From the IMG/VR virus record IMGVR_UViG_2563366799_000006: 49,446 bases of DNA, one strand, 5' to 3'. The position numbers and the translations under genes were made by a program. Of the stretch, positions 13,776-26,085 are shown piece after piece. The notes below the pieces were generated by a model. The model searched no databases, was not told the DNA's origin, and saw nothing but the letters and a program-made list of their open reading frames with translations. This DNA is from a virus. Its lineage: Duplodnaviria > Heunggongvirae > Uroviricota > Caudoviricetes. Numbering within the stretch: the stretch's first letter is position 1; each line of letters starts with the position of its first letter.

Positions 13776-14426
13776 ATGAGCGACAACCAGTTAGCACCTT
13801 GTTGGGAATTTCAGCCTTACCTTGCTGAAAGCAATGTTCGTCAGTTGTTAGCGGAAATTGCTAATGTACTCGAGCAATTGTACTACCACAAACACACACT
13901 GGACAGTAACTGGTCCGAAGGTGTAAGGGCTTATGATTGGGTCAGAAATCATTTGATTCAAAGTGAAGGGACACTGCCGGGTCTGGAAATGGTTTCGAAG
14001 GGACTGGATTATGTGGTTGCGTTAAATAAAGTGCCGCTGCAGTTCTCCAAAGATTGCATTAATAACCCGAAGAAGAAGCATCGCCTTCTTCGAAATAGGG
14101 TGGAGCATGAGCAACTTTCATTGTTCGGTGAAACTGAAGCCGAGCAAGATATTACATGGCGGATCATCGCCGAACCATTTTTATCCGATGAAGAAGATGG
14201 CGAGCTGGAATCAACATTGCCTCGCTGGGAAGTGGCTTTAGTTGGGTTTAACGCATATGGTGCCCAGATCAGTATGGTTTCACACCAATCTACTGCTTCA
14301 GCGCCGCTTATGTCTCTTGATACCAACACTCTTCCGGATGAAGCTGAGATTGGCAAAGCCTCTCTTCGCCGCCGTAAAAAAGATCAAGATTTGGATGTGA
14401 GCAGTAATGGAACATCAAGTGAATGA
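13776..14426 (+). CDS. Hypothetical protein, upstream partner of the HTH-ImmA/IrrE metallopeptidase
   Basis: 216 aa; no motif recognised; 3' end overlaps the next gene by 20 bp. Confidence 0.6.
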   Translation: MSDNQLAPCWEFQPYLAESNVRQLLAEIANVLEQLYYHKHTLDSNWSEGVRAYDWVRNHLIQSEGTLPGLEMVSKGLDYVVALNKVPLQFSKDCINNPKKKHRLLRNRVEHEQLSLFGETEAEQDITWRIIAEPFLSDEEDGELESTLPRWEVALVGFNAYGAQISMVSHQSTASAPLMSLDTNTLPDEAEIGKASLRRRKKDQDLDVSSNGTSSE

Positions 14427-15510
14427 CTTTGCTGAGTATCGTGGGGATAAGCTCAAATTAGCCAGAATGGCTGTTGGGCTCTCCTGCGAAGAGTTAGCGG
14501 AGAAAATTGGTAAAACAAAACAATTCGTTAGCAAATTGGAAAAAGGGTTTAAACCATCAGAACAGTTGTTAGAATTAATCTCATCTGCGCTGATGATTAA
14601 ATCTGATTTCCTATTTACTGAACGAAAATATGCTTTAGAAAGCGATGTTTGCCATTTTCGGAGTAAAAAATCGAGAACCCAAACATTAACCAATAGTGTT
14701 CTGGCAAGGGCGGAGATTCTTAACATTATAATCTCTGCCGTTGAGGGAGAAATCGAGTTTCCTGATGTTTGCATACCTGAGCACCCCGGTGCTGAATTGC
14801 TGACTCCAAATGATATTGAACGTGTAGCGGAAGACTGCAGAAGAGCATGGAACTTAGGGCTGGGACCTATATCCTCAATGGTCAAACTGGCTGAGAGTTT
14901 GGGGGTTATTGTTGCTCATGTGACAGGAGTGGATGACCGCGTAGATGCTTTTACTGTTCATAACAACAGGCCAGTAATCATCCGAAATAACGTCAAAAAG
15001 AGTATATGCAGATTCCGATCAGATTTAGGTCACGAATTGGGGCACTTGGTTATGCACGAAGGTATAACCACAGGAGATAAAGTGACTGAATCGCAAGCGG
15101 ATCGTTTTTCAAGCGCGTTGCTAGTTCCTCGATTGTCCTTTATTAAAGAGTTTCCCCGTATACGAGGAAGACAGTTCGATTGGAACGCCCTAGTTGAGTT
15201 TAAGCTTCGGTGGAAGATTAGTCTTAAAATGTGCATTTACCGAGCAACAACTCTAGGCCTGCTGACGCAGGAGCAGGCAAGAACAGGTTATATGCATTTG
15301 AACTCTAAAGGATATACGAAAGTTGAACCAGGAGATGAATTTATTCGCCCGGAAGAACCGAGTATGTTAGCTGAGGCGATTGAAATGCTGGATGATGCAA
15401 CATGGATGAGCATTCTCATGAAAACTGGTTTAAGCCAGGAGTTGGTTAGGGAGTTATTCTCGGTAAACCGCCCACTGTCAAATCCAAGAAATCTACTTCA
15501 ACTGGTTTGA
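14407..15510 (+). CDS. XRE-family HTH fused to ImmA/IrrE-family (COG2856) zinc metallopeptidase
   Basis: 367 aa; N-terminal HTH (LSCEELAEKIGKTKQFVSKLEKG); HEXXH motif HELGHLVMHEG. Confidence 0.8.
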   Translation: MEHQVNDFAEYRGDKLKLARMAVGLSCEELAEKIGKTKQFVSKLEKGFKPSEQLLELISSALMIKSDFLFTERKYALESDVCHFRSKKSRTQTLTNSVLARAEILNIIISAVEGEIEFPDVCIPEHPGAELLTPNDIERVAEDCRRAWNLGLGPISSMVKLAESLGVIVAHVTGVDDRVDAFTVHNNRPVIIRNNVKKSICRFRSDLGHELGHLVMHEGITTGDKVTESQADRFSSALLVPRLSFIKEFPRIRGRQFDWNALVEFKLRWKISLKMCIYRATTLGLLTQEQARTGYMHLNSKGYTKVEPGDEFIRPEEPSMLAEAIEMLDDATWMSILMKTGLSQELVRELFSVNRPLSNPRNLLQLV

Positions 15511-18139: not shown

Positions 18140-18273
18140 AGCCAGAAACGCTTGAGATACTCCGCGCGCGCTGGCAGCGCCTTCGCATTTATCGCTACCG
18201 GGGATCGGTGCTGGTGGATTATCGCATTCTTCGTAATTTTGTTCGTATCTATCATTCAGCAGGAGCAGCCTAA
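18136..18273 (+). CDS. YlcG-like small Arg-rich protein (45 aa), below ORF-track cutoff
   Basis: ATG at 18136 overlaps the rusA stop (ATGA) and its stop overlaps the Q start (TAATG); hand translation MKPETLEILRARWQRLRIYRYRGSVLVDYRILRNFVRIYHSAGAA; same position as ylcG in DLP12. Confidence 0.45.
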   Translation: MKPETLEILRARWQRLRIYRYRGSVLVDYRILRNFVRIYHSAGAA

Positions 18274-19088
18274 TGAACCTCGAAAACACCGTGAAATATC
18301 ACTTCGCCAAGTCGACGCTTATTAGCGACTCTCCGCGCGCCACTGGTTCAGATTCGCTGACCGGGACGGATGTCATGGCGGCCATGGGCATGACCCAGGA
18401 ACGTGCCGCCATGGGATACAGTGCCTTCCTCGGCAAGATGGGCATCAGTTACAACGATCGGGAGAGGGCGATTGAGTTGCTGTCTGAGTACGCGTTAACC
18501 AAATGCGATAAGGTTGCCGCGCTGCGCAAGCTGGACGATGCGGTTAAGCCACTGGTGATGCACCAGTTGGCCACCTTCGCTTTTGAAGATTACTCCCGCA
18601 GCGCTGCGAGCGTTAAGCAGTGTGATTGTTGCAGCGGGCAGGGATTTATTGAGGCCGACGTGTTCACAATGAAATCTCATTATTCAATGAGGATTCCTCA
18701 ATGGGCGAAAGAGCTTGGTCAGTCACCGAGTGATTTCGAGGTTAAACGACAGGTTCGAGAGGTGGTTCGAGTGCTGTGCTCGAACTGCAAGGGGAAGAAG
18801 GTTGTCAGTTGTGCCTGCAATGATTGCCGGGGACGTGGGAAAGCCGTAGACCAGAAGGAAACGAAGAAACAGGGTGTGCCGGTTATGACTGACTGCAAGC
18901 GCTGCGGCGGGCGTGGATATGAACGCATTCCTTCAACTGAGGCCCACGCAGCTGTTTGCCAGATTACGGATGTAATCAGCCTGGATACGTGGAAGAAGTC
19001 CGTTAAACCGTTCTATGATCAGCTGATTACGAAATTCGATATTGAAGAGGCATGGGCAGAAAACCAACTGAAACAAATAACACGATAA
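18273..19088 (+). CDS. Q: Late-gene antitermination protein Q
   Basis: 271 aa; N-terminus SDSPRATGSDSLTGTDVMAAMGM and Cys-pair zinc fingers (CSNCKGKK...CNDCRGRG...CKRCGGRG); located before the lysis genes. Confidence 0.8.
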   Translation: MNLENTVKYHFAKSTLISDSPRATGSDSLTGTDVMAAMGMTQERAAMGYSAFLGKMGISYNDRERAIELLSEYALTKCDKVAALRKLDDAVKPLVMHQLATFAFEDYSRSAASVKQCDCCSGQGFIEADVFTMKSHYSMRIPQWAKELGQSPSDFEVKRQVREVVRVLCSNCKGKKVVSCACNDCRGRGKAVDQKETKKQGVPVMTDCKRCGGRGYERIPSTEAHAAVCQITDVISLDTWKKSVKPFYDQLITKFDIEEAWAENQLKQITR

Positions 19089-19173
19089 CGGCTATGGAAG
19101 TTAATTCCAGCTATTTACTTTTCCCGAATCTGTGTTAATTTTATCCCAACGATGGGTTAATGCCTTCGTTTCA

Positions 19174-19206
19174 AGCCCCGCGGATAACACCGTGGGGCTT
19201 TTGCGT
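19174..19206 (+). terminator. Intrinsic terminator downstream of Q (tR'-like)
   Basis: AGCCCCGCGG-ataacac-CGTGGGGCT followed by TTTTGCGTTT. Confidence 0.55.
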
Positions 19207-19454
19207 TTCTGGAGGGTAAGAAAATGCACGGGTAGAACGGACAGACCGCAGTCGAAAGGCACTGCAGCAGTCATGATGCTGCCCCGAGTCGCGTAATGGC
19301 GAGCCTGTGTAGTGATGGGTAAGGGTTCATAGATCAAAATAAGCTCCGGTAAAGCAGCGTGAATGCCAGATACGCACCGGTTATCAGCGGCGATGACGCG
19401 ACAGCACCTCAAGGGCATGAGCGTGGCCACTCCGGGAAGTGGCAAAGAATTTAT

Positions 19455-19485
19455 AGCCTCGCTTATGCGGGGCTTTTCTATTTCA
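19455..19485 (+). terminator. Intrinsic terminator (AGCCTCGC-N4-GCGGGGCT family)
   Basis: AGCCTCGC-ttat-GCGGGGCT followed by TTTTCTATTT. Confidence 0.5.
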
Positions 19486-19592
19486 GGCCTCACGGGAATC
19501 ATCCGCTACGTGCTTTGTTGATAAATCCAGCCCGTGAAGCCTGACCCTTTTCATACACACACAGCGCCATCCGAAGAATCGGAGGTGAGGCT

Positions 19593-19871
19593 ATGACCAG
19601 AATGAGCACCATTTACAGCAGACTTTCATATGGAACAGGCACCACGCTGACCGGCTGCGGTGTATCAGCGAAGGCATATGCCGAAACAGCAAAAACAGCA
19701 AAAGAGGTGTCCTGGATGTTGGCCGACAGAATTGCAGGGTTAAGCCTGAGCGACTGGGCAATTATTGTCGGTATCGCATGCACGGTAATCACCTGTGCAG
19801 TGAACTGGTATTTCCGCTGGAAAGAACGGGAGGATCGGCGCAATGGCTATGTCTCTAAAGCTGAAGAATAA
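19593..19871 (+). CDS. Holin (two-TM, pinholin-like; MTRM dual-start motif)
   Basis: 92 aa; GGAGG RBS; hydrophobic segments; charged C-terminus [10 protein letters not shown]; immediately upstream of a SAR endolysin. Confidence 0.65.
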   Translation: MTRMSTIYSRLSYGTGTTLTGCGVSAKAYAETAKTAKEVSWMLADRIAGLSLSDWAIIVGIACTVITCAVNWYFRWKEREDRRNGYVSKAEE

Positions 19872-20391
19872 ATTGAGCGCAGCGGTCGTTGGTTTGATTC
19901 TTGCCGGGGCTTCCGCACCCGTGATTCTCGATCAGTTTCTGGATGAGAAAGAGGGTAACAGCTTGACAGCATATCGCGACGGCGGCGGACTCTGGACCAT
20001 TTGCCGTGGTGCAACAATGGTTGATGGCAAGCCAGTAGTACAGGGCATGAAGCTGTCAGCTGAGAAATGCGCCCAGGTAAACGCCATTGAACGCGACAAG
20101 GCGCTGGCGTGGGTTGACCGAAATATCAAAGTACCACTGACCGAACCACAGAAGGTGGGTATTGCATCCTTCTGCCCGTATAACATCGGCCCCGGTAAAT
20201 GCTTCCCATCGACCTTCTATAAGCGCATCAACGCAGGTGACCGCATCGGTGCATGCGAGGCAATCCGCTGGTGGATTAAAGACGGTGGCCGTGATTGCCG
20301 TCTAACCAAAGGCCAGAAGAATGGCTGCTATGGTCAGGTTGAGCGACGGGACCAGGAAAGCGCGCTGGCGTGCTGGGGGTTAGACCAATGA
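19843..20391 (+). CDS. SAR endolysin (GH24 lysozyme with N-terminal signal-anchor-release domain)
   Basis: 182 aa; N-terminal hydrophobic [19 protein letters not shown]; catalytic E-x8-D-x5-T ([16 protein letters not shown]). Confidence 0.85.
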
Positions 20392-20936
20392 TCAGCGAGT
20401 CTGTTAAGACCTGGTGGAAAGCCGCCACGGTTTCAGCGCTTCTCATTGCCTCATTCGCCGCAGGTAGTGTGTGGACGGAACGAGCATGGGAAAAGAAATG
20501 GGCAGATCGTAATAGTGAGGAGTCCTCTCAGGCAGAGAACGCTCAAACGGTTGCCCGTATGATTGAACAAGGGCGTGTAATTGCTCGCGATGAGGCTGTT
20601 AAAAATGCACAAGAACAGGCTGCAAAAGCAGCTGCGAATGCTGCTGGTCTGTCTGCCACTGTTAGCCAGCTGCGCACCGAAGCAACAAAACTTGCCATCC
20701 ACCTGGATGCCGCAAAGCACACCGCAGATCTTGCCGCTACCGTCCGAAGCAAAACAACCGACACCAACGCAGGATTGCTTGCCGACATGCTCGGAGATAT
20801 TGCAGCAGAAGCTAAACGATATGCTGGAATCGCTGACGAACGCTACCGGGCAGGAATGACGTGTGAGCGCGTTTACGACTCGGTGAGAGAGTCAAATAAC
20901 GGGATCTGGCAAAAAGCGGGGACGAATCCCCGCTAG
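20388..20936 (+). CDS. Rz: i-spanin (Rz-like)
   Basis: ATG at 20388 (ORF track 20370); N-terminal TM ([20 protein letters not shown]) then coiled-coil region; contains an embedded +1 lipoprotein ORF. Confidence 0.7.
20638..20859 (+). CDS. Rz1: o-spanin (Rz1-like lipoprotein) embedded in the +1 frame of Rz
   Basis: ATG at 20638; signal peptide with lipobox LASC; Pro-rich mature region; lies entirely within Rz. Confidence 0.65.
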
Positions 20937-20939
20937 CTG

Positions 20940-21155
20940 TTAGCCAACTTTGCGATAAGGGTAGCCAGCTTTTTTGATGTGGGCATCAAAATACTGGCCT
21001 TTTGACGACGCATTCATTAGTGCCGTGTACACGGTAGATGGAACCCGAGAGTATTGATAAATGCCACTGCTATGGAATGCAATTTCCAGCGTCGAAGTGG
21101 CCTGGTCATAACCTACTGATTGGAGATTTGAAGATGAAACAGGTTGACGAATCAA
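20940..21155 (-). CDS. KTSC-domain protein
   Basis: 71 aa; sequence MIRQPVSSSNLQSVGYDQATSTLEIAFHSSGIYQYSRVPSTVYTALMNASSKGQYF matches the recalled KTSC-domain pattern; opposite strand to the late operon. Confidence 0.55.
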   Translation of the reverse strand: MIRQPVSSSNLQSVGYDQATSTLEIAFHSSGIYQYSRVPSTVYTALMNASSKGQYFDAHIKKAGYPYRKVG

Positions 21156-21298
21156 AGCAGTTTCCTCGTTTGAATGGGAAGAGTCCCGAGGAAATCGTAG
21201 AGCTATTCAAAAGTTATAACTTTGTCGATGATCATGGTCATCGACTGGATATGTGCCAGGACTTCAAAGATTTGGTTGAGCTTGCAAGCGATGCCTGA
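21134..21298 (+). CDS. Hypothetical small protein
   Basis: ATG at 21134 with GGAG RBS (ORF track extends to 21038); terminator downstream. Confidence 0.4.
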   Translation: MKQVDESKQFPRLNGKSPEEIVELFKSYNFVDDHGHRLDMCQDFKDLVELASDA

Positions 21299-21325
21299 TG
21301 GCGTTACCGAAGCAGAAAGAAAGCT

Positions 21326-21351
21326 AGCCTCGCATTAGCGGGGCTTTTTTA
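21326..21351 (+). terminator. Intrinsic terminator (AGCCTCGC-N4-GCGGGGCT family)
   Basis: AGCCTCGC-atta-GCGGGGCT followed by TTTTTT. Confidence 0.6.
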
Positions 21352-21377
21352 CGACCAGAAGAAGCAGGAGAAGAAGT

Positions 21378-21578
21378 ATGTTAACAGTAAAAGTAATGTC
21401 GCCTGGTGGCGGCGAAGAGATTCATTGCGGTCTGAGTGTTGGCTTTAACCCTGACCAGCAGAGTATTGCTGTCTCGGGCATGGACCAGAACGTGTTTCTG
21501 AAACCCGGCGAGGTTGCTTATGTGATGAATGCTAACGGTAAGACCATTTCCCGTTACGAATGCCCCGCGCAGTTATGA
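21378..21578 (+). CDS. Hypothetical small protein
   Basis: 66 aa; GGAG RBS. Confidence 0.5.
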   Translation: MLTVKVMSPGGGEEIHCGLSVGFNPDQQSIAVSGMDQNVFLKPGEVAYVMNANGKTISRYECPAQL

Positions 21579-21638
21579 GCATTACAGAAGCCATTCCGAA
21601 GAGTGGCTTCGATAATGTGGCGTTAATATTACTGATTC

Positions 21639-21812
21639 TCAGTAGTCCGACTTAGCGAGAGAGGTTCCGCTGAAAAAACCTGATTTCCGTTCATCTTTTA
21701 CGAACCATTCGCAATAGTACTGATCACGTTCATCATCAAAGTAGCTTACGGTCATCAGGGGGCCACCGGACTTCAATTGGACAACGGTTCCATCTTCCAA
21801 TTTTTCAGACAT
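21639..21812 (-). CDS. DUF2158/YodC-like small protein (57 aa), below ORF-track cutoff
   Basis: ATG at 21810-21812 (minus) with GGAGG RBS; hand translation MSEKLEDGTVVQLKSGGPLMTVSYFDDERDQYYCEWFVKDERKSGFFSGTSLAKSDY; V.LKSGGP.MTV motif recalled from DUF2158. Confidence 0.45.
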   Translation of the reverse strand: MSEKLEDGTVVQLKSGGPLMTVSYFDDERDQYYCEWFVKDERKSGFFSGTSLAKSDY

Positions 21813-21938
21813 TTAATCCTCCATATCAAAAAAGAAATTGATCGTTTTAACTTGTAGATAGGGATGCCATGACGCTAGCGCCCTATTGATTTGCCTAACC
21901 AATATGTACTGACAACCTTATAAAGGCTAGAGATATTT

Positions 21939-22589
21939 ATGGCAAAAACGGCTTCGAGTGATCTTCCGCAACGCCCACTTCCACCAGTTAATTTCATTGG
22001 CCCCGATAACTGGCAGCCCTACACCAGATTAATCCCCGCCAATGAAGCGCATGAGTGGATAAGCCGACAAATCCTCAGCGATAGCGGAAGCATACATAAT
22101 CCTGACCACGCCCATTTAATTGAAGCTGATTTGTGTTTTATGTGGGCTTCAGAATCGTTCGCGAAGAAAGGTCGCTATGTTCTCGGTCAGGCCGAGCAGG
22201 TAATGCTCCGCGCAGGTGGTTGGCAGAAAGCCAGAATGGAACAGCAGATGTATGAATGGTTTGGGCGCATCCCGAAGTTCATCATCACGTTGGCCTCCGA
22301 TTATTGTTCACAATGCAGCGACCTCGAGTTCTGCGCACTGGTAGAGCATGAGCTTTACCACATTGCCCAGGCCACCGATGAGTTTGGCGCTCCGAAGTTC
22401 AACAAAGAGACCGGGCAACCGGTACTGACATTGCGCGGCCACGACGTCGAAGAATTTGTCGGTGTTGTGCGTAGATACGGGGCGAGCACTGAAGTGCAAG
22501 AACTGGTGGACGCAGCCAATCAACCTGCAGAGGTGGCAAAACTTAACATCGCCAGAGCGTGCGGGACGTGCATGCTGAGACTGGCGTGA
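21939..22589 (+). CDS. Putative phage metallopeptidase-like protein (HExxH)
   Basis: 216 aa; motif VEHELYHIAQ; position just upstream of the terminase small subunit. Confidence 0.5.
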   Translation: MAKTASSDLPQRPLPPVNFIGPDNWQPYTRLIPANEAHEWISRQILSDSGSIHNPDHAHLIEADLCFMWASESFAKKGRYVLGQAEQVMLRAGGWQKARMEQQMYEWFGRIPKFIITLASDYCSQCSDLEFCALVEHELYHIAQATDEFGAPKFNKETGQPVLTLRGHDVEEFVGVVRRYGASTEVQELVDAANQPAEVAKLNIARACGTCMLRLA

Positions 22590-22620: not shown

Positions 22621-23109
22621 ATGGCTGCATTAAAGGGAGAGGTGAAAGCGTTTATCGTTCAATCGCTTGCATGCTTCGACACGCCGTCGCAAGTGGTCGA
22701 TGCCGTCAAAAAAGAATTTGGCATCACGATCCCCCGTCAGCAGGTTGAATCTCACGACCCGACGAAAGCAAACGGCAAAGGTCTGGCGAAAAAATGGGTC
22801 GAGATGTTCAACGAAACCCGCGAGCGCTTCCAGACGGAAATTGCAGAAATCCCGATCGCTAATAAGGCTTATCGGCTTCGCGTACTGCAACGAATGTCTG
22901 TGACCGCAGAGAACATGAAAAACCTCGGCATGACAGCTCAGCTTCTCGAACAGGCAGCAAAAGAAGTTGGGGATGTCTACACCAACAAACAGAAGGTTGA
23001 GCAAAGCGTTGTTGCCACCCATAACGTTATGCCGGTCCCGTCCTGCGATAACGTCGACGACTGGGAAGCAGCAGCACAGAAACAGCAGAGCGAGGTTCTT
23101 GGTGGATGA
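22621..23109 (+). CDS. Terminase small subunit (putative)
   Basis: 162 aa; stop overlaps the TerL start; N-terminus recalls DUF2280-type small terminase. Confidence 0.55.
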   Translation: MAALKGEVKAFIVQSLACFDTPSQVVDAVKKEFGITIPRQQVESHDPTKANGKGLAKKWVEMFNETRERFQTEIAEIPIANKAYRLRVLQRMSVTAENMKNLGMTAQLLEQAAKEVGDVYTNKQKVEQSVVATHNVMPVPSCDNVDDWEAAAQKQQSEVLGG

Positions 23110-24677
23110 ATTACAAAGCCGTCTGGAAACCTTTGCCGGGATCGCAATCGCTCTCCCTGAGTTGCCCGTGTAACGAAATCCTCTACGAAGGTACGCGAGG
23201 CCCCGGTAAAACCGCCGCGCAACTGGCGCGCTTTCGTCGCCTGGTTGGTCTGGGCTATGGCTCGTTCTGGCGTGGCGTCATTTTCGATACCGAGTATAAA
23301 AACCTCACCGACATCATTACCCAGTCAAAGCGTATGTATCGCCTGTTTAATGACGGTGCACGCTATCTGGCGTCAGCATCTGAATTGCGCTGGGTATGGC
23401 CGACTGGCGAAGAGTTGCTGTTCCGCTTTGGGAAGGAAGAGGGGGATTACTGGGATTACCACGGTCAGGAGTTCCCGTTCATCGGCTTTAACGAGCTGAC
23501 AAAGCAGCAGTCTGCTGAGTTCTACGAAATGATGTTCTCCTGCCGGCGCTCATCGTTCCGGCCGGAGAACTACCCGCTGGCTAACGGCGGTCTGTTGAAG
23601 CCAATCCCGCTCGAAACATTCAGCACGACCAACCCATTCGGCATCGGCCACACCTGGGTGAAGAAACGCTTCATCGAGCCAGCGCCCCGCGGCACCATCA
23701 TTCGTGAAACGCAGCAGGTGTTTAACCCGCAAACTGAGCGCGAAGAGGATGTGACGCTGACGCGCGTGGCTATTCACGGCTCGTTCAAAGAGAACCCGTA
23801 TCTGGATCCCCAGTACATCGCAACGCTGATGGCCATCAAAGACCCGAACCGCCGCAAAGCTTGGGTAGAGGGCTCCTGGGATGTCACCAGCGGTGGGCGC
23901 TTTGACCACCTGTGGAATGCATCGCTGCACGTCATTAAGCCGTTCCGCATCCCGGATAGCTGGACGGTTGACCGTTCCCATGACTGGGGTGAGTCGAAGC
24001 CGTTCTCTAACCTCTGGTGGGCGCGAGCCGACGGTACTGCCGCAGAACTGCCTGATGGTCGCCAGTTCTGCCCGCCTGCCGGGTCGCTGATCCTGATTGG
24101 CGAGTGGTATGGCTGTCCACCTGACGAGCTGAACAAAGGGCTCAATATGAGCTCGACAAACGTCGCCAAGGGTGTGGCCTGGATTGATAAGCGGCTGATG
24201 GGCGAAGAGCTGCCTGAACCTGAAGAGATAAAACTCAATGGGATAACTCAGGGGCAACTGAACATCATGCCCGGTATCTGCAAAAAGGTTGTGCCCGGAC
24301 CTGCTGACGGGGCTATCTACAACACCGGTGATGACGAATTATCTATTGCCCAGAAAATGGAATCCCAGGGCGTTAAATGGGTGCCATCCAACAAGAAGCC
24401 GGGTTCACGCGTGAACGGCGCGGCACTGTTTGCTGACATGCTGGAGGCCGTCATTGAGGGCAAGAAGCTGGAATCAGGTATGCCAGAGAAACCAGCATTC
24501 TACGTGTTTGACTACTGCCGGGGCTGGATTAGCCGTGTTCCGGTTCTCGTTCGCGACAGTAAGAACCCTGACGATGTAGACACACAGCAGGAAGATCACG
24601 ATTGGGATGGCACGCGCTATGCCGTCCTACATTCACCGCCGAAGAAAGTCGGCAAAGTCACCAGCCTGAGGCTCTAA
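23106..24677 (+). CDS. Terminase large subunit
   Basis: 523 aa; Walker A GTRGPGKT; C-terminal nuclease-type acidic motifs (DHDWDGTRYA). Confidence 0.9.
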   Translation: MNYKAVWKPLPGSQSLSLSCPCNEILYEGTRGPGKTAAQLARFRRLVGLGYGSFWRGVIFDTEYKNLTDIITQSKRMYRLFNDGARYLASASELRWVWPTGEELLFRFGKEEGDYWDYHGQEFPFIGFNELTKQQSAEFYEMMFSCRRSSFRPENYPLANGGLLKPIPLETFSTTNPFGIGHTWVKKRFIEPAPRGTIIRETQQVFNPQTEREEDVTLTRVAIHGSFKENPYLDPQYIATLMAIKDPNRRKAWVEGSWDVTSGGRFDHLWNASLHVIKPFRIPDSWTVDRSHDWGESKPFSNLWWARADGTAAELPDGRQFCPPAGSLILIGEWYGCPPDELNKGLNMSSTNVAKGVAWIDKRLMGEELPEPEEIKLNGITQGQLNIMPGICKKVVPGPADGAIYNTGDDELSIAQKMESQGVKWVPSNKKPGSRVNGAALFADMLEAVIEGKKLESGMPEKPAFYVFDYCRGWISRVPVLVRDSKNPDDVDTQQEDHDWDGTRYAVLHSPPKKVGKVTSLRL

Positions 24678-24681
24678 ACCC

Positions 24682-26085
24682 ATGCCTGATATTTCAACCC
24701 CCAATCTGGACTATGGGAACATGGTGCAGGCGTGGGACATCAACGACGCCCTGATGGGCGGCACGCTCTATATGCGACAACTGGGCGAGGCATATCTCCC
24801 GCGCTGGCCGAAAGAAGACAAAGAGGACTATAAAAAACGCCTCTCTGTGGCCACGCTTTTGCCCGCCTACGAAGAGACCATCAACCAGAACGTTGGCCGC
24901 GTATTCGCTGAGCCGATCCAACTGGGCGAGAACGTCCCGGATGCGCTGCGCGAGTTCTCGAAGAACGTTGACCTGGAAGGCAGTCGCCTCGATGTCTGGT
25001 CGCAGGCGTTCTTCAGCCTGGCAATGCAGTATGGCCTTTCGCACGCTCTGGTGGATTATCCCCGGGTGGACGCCGAAAAGGTGAAGACCAAGGCGGATGA
25101 AAAGGCTATCGGCGCGCGGCCGTACGTCACCATGCTAAATCCCCGTCAGGTGATCGGCTGGAAGTCAAAGATAACCGGCGGCAAGGTGGTGCTCACCGAA
25201 CTGCGCATCAAAGAGGTGGTAGTCGAAGACGGCGATGATTTCGGGCAAACAAAGGTCGAGCAGATTCGACTGCTGACGCCCGGGCAGGTGCAGATTTACC
25301 GCAAGGCCACTGGTGCCGACGGCCAGGCGAACTGGACGCTGCACGAGGAATGGCAAACATCCCGCAGGGATATTACCCTGGTTACGCTCTACACCAAGCG
25401 CACTGGGTTTATGTGCGGTTCTCCGCCGCTGTTGAACATGGCGCTGTTGAATGTGAAGCACTGGCAGAGCCAGAGCGAGCAGGACAACATTCTGCACGTC
25501 GCGCGCGTCCCTCTGCTCACGGTATTCGGGCTAGAGGATGGGCAGGAACTGGTAATTGGCTCTTCGTCTGCAACTCAGTTCTCCGATCGACAGAAACAGG
25601 GATTGGAATATGTCGAGCATACTGGAACCTCAATTAGTGCCGGTAAAGAGTCGCTAACCGACCTGGTGGAGCAGATGCGCCAGGCAGGCGCGAAACTGCT
25701 GCGCACTGACAACACCTCAACCAAGTCTGTTGACCAGACCTCAGAAGAGAAGATGCAGGAGCAGTCACCGCTCTACACCATGGCAACCAGCCTAGAGGAT
25801 GCGATCGACAATATCCTGCAGATTATGGCTGAGTACATCGGTGAATCCGAAGGTGGTAACGTCGATGTCCGCACCGAGCTGGATGTCGAGTCGAAAGAGT
25901 TCAATCCTCCTGCTGCACTGGCCATTCAGTCGCTACGTCAGGGCGGTGACCTTCGCCGCATAGATGCGATTAAAGCGCTGCAGAAGCTTAACCTGATTGA
26001 TGCAGACGCAGACCCAGAAAAGGTCCTGGACGAGTTATTGGCTGAATCCTCCTCGCTGGATACCAGAACGATAGGCGAGGTGTGA
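24682..26085 (+). CDS. Portal protein
   Basis: 467 aa; immediately after TerL; size and position typical. Confidence 0.75.
   Translation: MPDISTPNLDYGNMVQAWDINDALMGGTLYMRQLGEAYLPRWPKEDKEDYKKRLSVATLLPAYEETINQNVGRVFAEPIQLGENVPDALREFSKNVDLEGSRLDVWSQAFFSLAMQYGLSHALVDYPRVDAEKVKTKADEKAIGARPYVTMLNPRQVIGWKSKITGGKVVLTELRIKEVVVEDGDDFGQTKVEQIRLLTPGQVQIYRKATGADGQANWTLHEEWQTSRRDITLVTLYTKRTGFMCGSPPLLNMALLNVKHWQSQSEQDNILHVARVPLLTVFGLEDGQELVIGSSSATQFSDRQKQGLEYVEHTGTSISAGKESLTDLVEQMRQAGAKLLRTDNTSTKSVDQTSEEKMQEQSPLYTMATSLEDAIDNILQIMAEYIGESEGGNVDVRTELDVESKEFNPPAALAIQSLRQGGDLRRIDAIKALQKLNLIDADADPEKVLDELLAESSSLDTRTIGEV

Follow-up and report, generated by a model that had tools for sequence, protein, structure and literature searches.

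The viral DNA stretch IMGVR_UViG_2563366799_000006 (49,446 nucleotides; here the window, meaning the whole stretch that was analysed) is a lambdoid temperate-phage genome whose genes include those for RecT, a MuF-like head protein and a P22-like coat protein. On its plus strand, at 21939-22589, it carries a gene for a 216-aa putative metallopeptidase of the Pfam family PF18894, which we call MP and which is followed on the same strand by the genes for a DUF2280 protein, the large terminase subunit (TerL) and the portal. An earlier note, made from the sequence alone, had described at this place a 216-aa HExxH protein with a VEHELYHIAQ motif, and the protein is present exactly as claimed, with the motif at residues 135-144. 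The gene order also bears out the note's view that MP heads the packaging operon. Its wording that MP lies immediately upstream of the terminase genes stands as far as adjacency goes, the nearest gene being that of the DUF2280 protein, which we infer to be the small terminase subunit (TerS). The features of the locus are as follows.

21939-22589, plus strand: MP gene, encoding a 216-aa PF18894 'PhageMetallopep' mini-zincin; ATG start, end coordinate including the stop codon
21972-21986, plus strand: N-terminal R-P-x-P-P motif, MP residues 12-16
22107-22115, plus strand: H57-x-H59, conserved ligand-type pair, in helix 55-60 of the model
22347-22361, plus strand: HExxH (H137-E138-L-Y-H141), predicted catalytic zinc motif, where the active-site helix of the zincin fold (128-140) ends
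22440-22451, plus strand: H168-D169-V-E171, candidate third zinc ligand region, directly before helix 174-180
22560-22571, plus strand: C208-G-T-C211, C-terminal CxxC, five residues from the C-terminus
22621-23109, plus strand: DUF2280 protein, presumed TerS, after a 31-nt spacer from MP; PF10045 match (E=1.8e-52) over residues 1-103
23106-24677, plus strand: TerL, matching phrog_2 and phrog_979 'terminase large subunit', with a 4-nt overlap with the DUF2280 gene
24682-26085, plus strand: portal (DUF4055), PF13264 match (E=9.5e-44)

Family, conserved residues and predicted fold of MP

A bare HExxH motif is not above chance in this window, where its long open stretches lead to an expectation of about 0.66 occurrences and two are seen, and the significance of MP therefore comes from its homology to PF18894 and from conservation. 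The search with hidden Markov models (HMMs) that the earlier note had proposed returned a full-length match to PF18894, 'Putative phage metallopeptidase' (E=2.3e-43, 147.9 bits against a cut-off of 23.7, positions 2-134 of the 134-position profile), a family that all 89 aligned homologues match as well. MP also falls into PHROG 513 (E=9e-100); no model in NCBIfam or PADLOC matches it, nor do defence-system models. A large protein database holds 4,384 relatives, and the exhaustive search of representatives gave 750 clusters at 50% identity. Of 5,426 complete E. coli genomes, 27 carry a copy with 97% nucleotide identity to MP, under the RefSeq name 'putative metallopeptidase'. The family is thus already catalogued in Pfam and RefSeq; in the literature on PF18894, on DUF2280 or on a metallopeptidase together with terminase, no functional or experimental study was found.

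Residue conservation was scored, unless stated otherwise, over 608 unique full-length homologues gathered from all sources. Loss of the motif among homologues was the outcome that the earlier note had named as speaking against its proposal, and the motif is retained almost without exception: H137 is conserved in 100%, E138 in 99.8% and H141 in 99.8%, and the HExxH is kept in 127 of 128 full-length representatives at 34-55% identity. Beyond it, H168 is likewise present in 100%, followed by C208 (99.7%), H57 (99.5%), H59 (99.0%), D169 (98.7%), E171 (98.4%) and C211 (97.5%), and in the N-terminal RPxPP motif by P13 (96.7%), P15 (about 94%) and P16 (about 91%). MP has six cysteines (residues 66, 123, 126, 132, 208 and 211), which include the two CxxC pairs CSQC (123-126) and CGTC (208-211). 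The earlier mention of several Cys pairs is accurate in that both are present, and it narrows in that C123 and C126 occur in only about 20% of divergent clusters and are clade-specific, with C132 in 78%; only the C-terminal pair is therefore a family feature.

The invariant ligand-type residues of MP exceed the needs of one catalytic zinc. From their conservation pattern, it is plausible that H57, H59, C208 and C211 form a second metal site; as an alternative, it is also plausible that the Cys-bearing C-terminal tail reaches the catalytic zinc. By analogy with known zincins, C208 and C211 would serve either as a structural zinc site or in a cysteine-switch or tail-latency role. The candidate metal ligands are all conserved at about 98-100%, a level at which the co-loss analysis does not discriminate between these options.

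The AlphaFold2 (AF2) model of MP, built on 89 diverse rows, has a mean predicted local distance difference test (pLDDT) score of 93.8 and a predicted template modelling (pTM) score of 0.88. Residues 11-20, which include the RPxPP motif, have a pLDDT of 94 and are thus placed against the domain, and the tail is low, with a pLDDT of 57 in its last block. The structure search suggested by the earlier note identified a zincin fold, and the model shows the arrangement that defines zincins (clan MA), with a mixed beta-sheet, a backing helix and an active-site helix that carries the HExxH. The catalytic core is structurally similar to the minigluzincins proabylysin, projannalysin and selecase, and as modelled it would resemble the wider group of minigluzincins, SprT/Spartan and Wss1. 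In the fold comparison, whose figures are given without a column label, projannalysin stands at 7.8, selecase at 7.0, the Spartan SprT domain at 6.9, BepA (M48) at 6.6, proabylysin at 6.5, a mini-zincin at 6.1, YbeY at 6.0, BlaR1 at 5.6 and Wss1 at 5.0-5.1. Foldseek with the MP model found no match in the PDB, and the BFVD matches were limited to distant members of the family and weakly matching Bacillus phage G proteins.

Judged by sequence, MP belongs to none of these fold-similar families (projannalysin, Spartan, BepA, YbeY, BlaR1, Wss1 and the others). No match to a PDB sequence was found with the single sequence or with a profile, and no SprT-like or WLM Pfam match rose above threshold, sub-threshold SprT-like matches being seen in 5 of 89 members (best E=0.012). 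Sequence identity to the minigluzincins (provisional MEROPS family M95) is only 9-12%. These are archaeal and bacterial cellular proteins of about 105-110 residues that consist of the core only, whereas MP is a terminase-linked phage gene product of about double that length, with an N-terminal helical/beta extension, a C-terminal addition, extra invariant His and Cys residues, and a beta-hairpin insert between HExxH and H168 (residues 142-165). The zinc ligands of Wss1 are H115, H119 and H125, the third being a His six residues after the HExxH (HExxHx5H). In MP, by contrast, H141 is followed by I-A-Q-A-T-D-E, and the next invariant His, H168, lies 27 residues further on. Proabylysin is tail-inhibited, and Wss1 is DNA-activated and cysteine-switched. 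For MP, the hints of such a link to DNA are contextual: its place beside the terminase genes and the HTH-like fusions of some members.

A phage-encoded HExxH zincin as such has a parallel in the ImmA/IrrE proteins (Peptidase_M78), one of which is encoded in the window itself. This second HExxH protein, unrelated to MP, lies in the early region (14407-15510, plus strand) and consists of an XRE-type HTH_3 domain fused to an ImmA/IrrE-like Peptidase_M78 domain, with HELGH at 15031; proteins of this type usually cleave repressors. The phage thus encodes two different zincins. An open reading frame (ORF) for another 216-aa protein (13776-14426, plus strand), which matches no Pfam family, overlaps and directly precedes the HTH-M78 gene.

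PHROG 513 and several reference phage records, among them NC_030929 (JBD44 gp16), NC_020850 (VBM1), JQ177065 (ZF40 gp39), NC_018279 (Oslo) and NC_019927 (ENT47670), label MP homologues as 'transposase' or 'putative transposase'. We rejected this assignment: there is no DDE, serine/tyrosine recombinase or HUH domain, PF18894 is the sole Pfam domain, and the fold is that of a zincin. The label looks like a propagated mis-annotation, which probably arose from the HTH_Tnp_1-like N-terminal extensions of some members, absent from MP. Another lead from phage annotation, 'COG4900', was dropped when no connection to minigluzincins was found.

N-terminal extensions occur in 34 of 150 representative clusters (about 23%); many of them are helix-turn-helix (HTH)-like, with sub-threshold matches to HTH_Tnp_1, HTH_28 and MerR. 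The extended members (P0130, P0131, P0138, P0142 and others) have 250-330 residues and the pattern YSxExKxxALxxL...GDxxxAAKxxxVPxxxLxxW, and come almost only from metagenomes. The viral and genome collections contained no HTH-extended form, and the metagenome scan gave one clear case (L380, 4977-5783), in which a DUF2280 gene and a TerL-sized ORF still follow. In this context, the extension gives MP a DNA-binding domain and is no substitute for TerS.

Pairing of MP with DUF2280 and the module boundary

The order MP, DUF2280, TerL and portal recurs in phages of Pseudomonas, Vibrio, Acinetobacter, Rhizobium and Pectobacterium. Using HMMs built from the loci, we counted DUF2280 genes within 1.5 kb downstream of MP. 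In 164 phage and IMG/VR loci, DUF2280 lies directly downstream in 157 and is displaced by an inserted gene in 2 (159 in total). The corresponding counts are 74 of 78 evaluable chromosomal loci from many phyla and 61 of 63 evaluable metagenome loci. Overall, DUF2280 is found downstream of MP in 294 of about 305 loci (about 96%), the total being approximate because some loci are common to several collections. The spacer is mostly 0-50 nt, and the pairing spans Proteobacteria, Acidobacteriota, Armatimonadota, Gemmatimonadota, Chloroflexota and Clostridia. In the reverse test, loci seeded with DUF2280 have MP upstream in all 74 that could be evaluated. The two families are also alike in their numbers of phage database records per genus (MP/DUF2280: Acinetobacter 62/62, Pseudomonas 44/44, Vibrio 8/8, Burkholderia 7/7) and are of similar database abundance (MP 4,384, DUF2280 4,673). 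No conserved gene was found upstream of MP across the loci; with upstream neighbours varying in this way, the conserved block begins at MP.

Two side observations concern individual neighbours. An inserted gene stands between MP and DUF2280 at 1170-1718 of locus L155. Some phages, such as Acinetobacter phage Acba_3 (3553-4020 of locus L003), have an endonuclease gene directly before MP, for which the Acinetobacter records give the annotation 'putative endonuclease', HNH or Vsr-like; a genome can thus hold both MP and a terminase-associated nuclease.

HNH endonucleases such as HK97 gp74 are encoded beside the terminase genes in many phages and prophages (PMC3592412). HNH proteins of this type and MP are both small metal-binding proteins beside terminase genes and are candidate third components of a packaging machine. 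This likeness raises the alternative that MP is a non-proteolytic packaging accessory in the role that HNH endonucleases have beside HK97-type terminases, its zincin scaffold binding or cutting nucleic acid or helping TerS to recognise or cleave the packaging site. Their folds and chemistry are unrelated, HNH proteins being beta-beta-alpha-Me nucleases and MP a zincin, and some phages have both; we regard this alternative as quite improbable.

Our inference that the DUF2280 protein is TerS is drawn from its position, its size, the overlap of its gene with that of TerL, a tail shared with one annotated TerS and its predicted helix arrangement. Residues 110-159 of the window's DUF2280 protein match phrog_5334 'terminase small subunit', and the tail of the annotated TerS of Escherichia phage HK639 matches the same region of that profile. 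The predicted secondary structure has three short helices followed by three long ones. In PHROGs and all the database sources consulted, no function is assigned to DUF2280.

The comparison with HK639 also bears on how the block is inherited. The TerL genes of HK639 and of the window have 82.4% nucleotide identity, the last 65 or so residues of TerS are in common, and the HK639 counterpart of the window's portal is annotated as portal in the same position after that 82%-identical TerL. The N-terminal region of the HK639 TerS belongs to another family (phrog_1206), and HK639 has no MP, a pattern indicative of a recombination joint within TerS. The window's TerL type is found in only 7 of 84 close loci. 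Co-variation was followed in 5,671 comparisons among 107 non-redundant MP/TerS pairs. The Spearman correlation between MP and the TerS N-domain is 0.63, against 0.30 between the TerS N-domain and its own C-terminal tail. Among the 223 comparisons in which MP is at least 70% identical, the TerS N-domain is similar in 193 and dissimilar in 1, and the tails are unrelated in 147. Taken together, the co-variation and the HK639 swap place a recombination boundary inside TerS, and on these sequence comparisons the region is made up of two modules, one comprising MP and the DUF2280 N-domain and the other the TerS tail and TerL. Median identity is 51% for MP and 49% for the TerS N-domain.

Linkage of this kind could also be imposed in cis. 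The pac site of many pac phages is located within or close to the TerS gene; were the site recognised by the DUF2280 N-domain to lie in or beside the MP gene, recombinants that separate the two would be inviable, and the MP protein could do something else altogether. This would explain why the TerS tail and TerL are exchanged but MP and the TerS N-domain stay together. Against it, MP lacks a trough of synonymous variation among 141 unique close relatives (0.48-0.77), a test that a pac site co-varying with TerS would escape. No repeat array, unusual structure or notable promoter or terminator was found at the MP region. Invariant catalytic residues would moreover be left unexplained, so that a function of the protein would still be needed. 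We consider a purely cis-acting linkage very doubtful.

Surroundings of MP in the window

The genes and intervals upstream of MP are listed below.

18273-19088, plus strand: Q antiterminator (PF03589), with several CxxCxGxG motifs and a sub-threshold match to the DnaJ central zinc finger
19843-20391: lysozyme of the lysis cassette
20370-20936: DUF2514 protein of the lysis cassette
20940-21155, minus strand: KTSC protein
21038-21298, plus strand: ORF of 86 aa
21378-21578, plus strand: phrog_3909 protein
21639-21812, minus strand: DUF2158 protein
21813-21938, no strand: intergenic region between the divergent DUF2158 gene and MP, with one weak sigma-70-like site at 21909-21937 (plus strand)

Since it lies downstream of Q and the lysis genes, MP is in the late region. 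The roughly 0.5 kb between Q and the putative holin (19101-19590) contains only overlapping short ORFs on both strands, no convincing ORF among them, and no Rfam or tRNA match was found in it; this is the expected place of the late promoter and the Q-utilisation site. The small-gene patch between the lysis cassette and MP (20940-21812) has the look of moron cargo. Both sigma-70-like sites in the MP upstream region and terminator-like sites in the MP region are at chance level in number. A weak terminator-like hairpin (22571-22588, plus strand; 7 pairs, 3 of them G-C, then AATTTTT) overlaps the 3' end of MP, just ahead of the TerS ribosome-binding region.

The presence of a P22-like coat protein and a MuF-like head protein in the window, with no head protease identified among the scanned ORFs, leaves room for MP as a protease of capsid or prohead maturation whose gene precedes those of the terminase. 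MP lies outside the head-assembly cluster, though, and tracks the TerS N-domain and not the head genes. The known prohead proteases are enzymes of the serine or herpesvirus type whose genes stand between those of portal and coat, and P22-like coat systems use a scaffold without proteolysis. A role in head maturation is accordingly exceedingly improbable.

Proposed role of MP in packaging initiation

The earlier note had left the role of MP between protease, DNA-binding protein and packaging accessory. These options stand, and our data lean towards a packaging-linked peptidase. The pairing of MP with the DUF2280 TerS suggests a role in starting DNA packaging. Building on the family membership, fold, motif conservation, synteny and co-inheritance established here, a model of its catalytic activity, substrate, cooperation with TerS and latency mechanism may be put as follows. 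MP would be a soluble, minimal zincin of about 210 residues with an intact HExxH and H168 (plus D169 and E171). It would be made from the first gene of a late-operon block, MP-DUF2280 TerS-TerL, and be inherited with the DNA-recognition (N-terminal) domain of TerS. At the start of DNA packaging, MP would act with the DUF2280 TerS as a zinc-dependent peptidase, processing or turning over TerS itself or another protein on the DNA to be packaged. Until it is engaged, the protein may be kept inactive by the cysteine-bearing tail at its C-terminus, in the way that has been put forward for Wss1 and proabylysin. We hold this reading, a zinc peptidase working with the DUF2280 TerS at packaging initiation and perhaps tail-latent, only tentatively, at a little under an even chance.

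In a stronger form, MP would be the obligatory third part, with the DUF2280 TerS and TerL, of a distinct class of packaging initiation complexes, a latent zinc protease that is activated at the packaging site and there trims or recycles TerS or clears DNA-bound proteins from the path of the motor; this we judge unlikely. It has to be set against the Salinibacter phages, of which 181 records match DUF2280 and none matches MP. In the one record inspected, that of Salinibacter phage 4_20 (3432-4480 of locus L247), a membrane protein without HExxH precedes DUF2280; the large set of near-identical Salinibacter ruber phages to which it belongs has DUF2280 and then a TerL-sized ORF, with a multi-pass membrane protein where MP would be. 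MP is thus not generally required by DUF2280 terminases.

The Salinibacter phages count against the cooperation of MP with TerS more generally, as do several other observations. About 3% of loci (L102, L114, L123, L127 and L128) pair MP with another TerS-like protein, a small basic or HTH protein followed by a TerL-sized ORF; the TerS-like call in these five was made by eye, and PHROGs places one of the proteins in a family of unknown function and another in no family. Proximity or a cis-acting site can also produce tight linkage, with no need for the two proteins to cooperate. Recurrent MP-DUF2280 fusions were not found, short as the spacers of 0-50 nt are. A single 374-aa protein (P0015, from 4 contigs of an ENA metagenome) joins the two by read-through, its stop codon lost and an 11-residue linker in place. 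It was rejected as Rosetta-stone evidence because it is a singleton, the best 120 database hits for it containing no second fusion. The AF2 model of this fusion, run with unpaired rows, has a pTM of 0.55, a disordered linker and no confident MP-TerS interface.

These same points favour a different explanation, in which MP is an accessory, moron-like zincin, a late protease directed at a host or competitor protein (for example in counter-defence or host take-over). Its linkage to TerS would then be a matter of proximity, the start of the structural operon merely tolerating cargo. DUF2280 phages without an MP match, MP beside other TerS-like types and the lack of a recurrent fusion or of a confident AF2 interface would all be expected of such a gene. 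A 2026 paper places the MP gene among accessory genes of unknown role, the window's MP follows the moron-like patch of small genes, part of which (KTSC, DUF2158) is on the opposite strand, and the MP carriers seen are all apparently temperate phages or prophages. Cargo of this kind is difficult to reconcile with a position that is essentially invariant across about 305 loci in several phyla while everything upstream varies, with conservation at the level of a core gene (the median identities given above), and with a linkage between MP and the TerS N-domain that exceeds the linkage between the two halves of TerS; no known defence family is matched, either. On balance, we see an accessory zincin as somewhat unlikely and keep a packaging-linked peptidase as the working interpretation.

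MP being a catalogued gene, its presence in this phage is ordinary. The pattern of interest is that MP and DUF2280, each with more than 4,000 database hits, are inherited as one module at the start of the packaging operon in the roughly 305 loci sampled, whatever TerL follows. If MP works with the small terminase, it would represent a new accessory packaging activity, comparable to that of the HK97-like HNH proteins, DUF2280 would gain a function, and the 'transposase' mis-annotation in several reference phage genomes would be corrected. If MP were in fact an obligatory component, it would be a phage counterpart of Spartan and Wss1 and the first protease assigned to terminase function. The MP-DUF2280 pairing is thus a concrete, testable lead.

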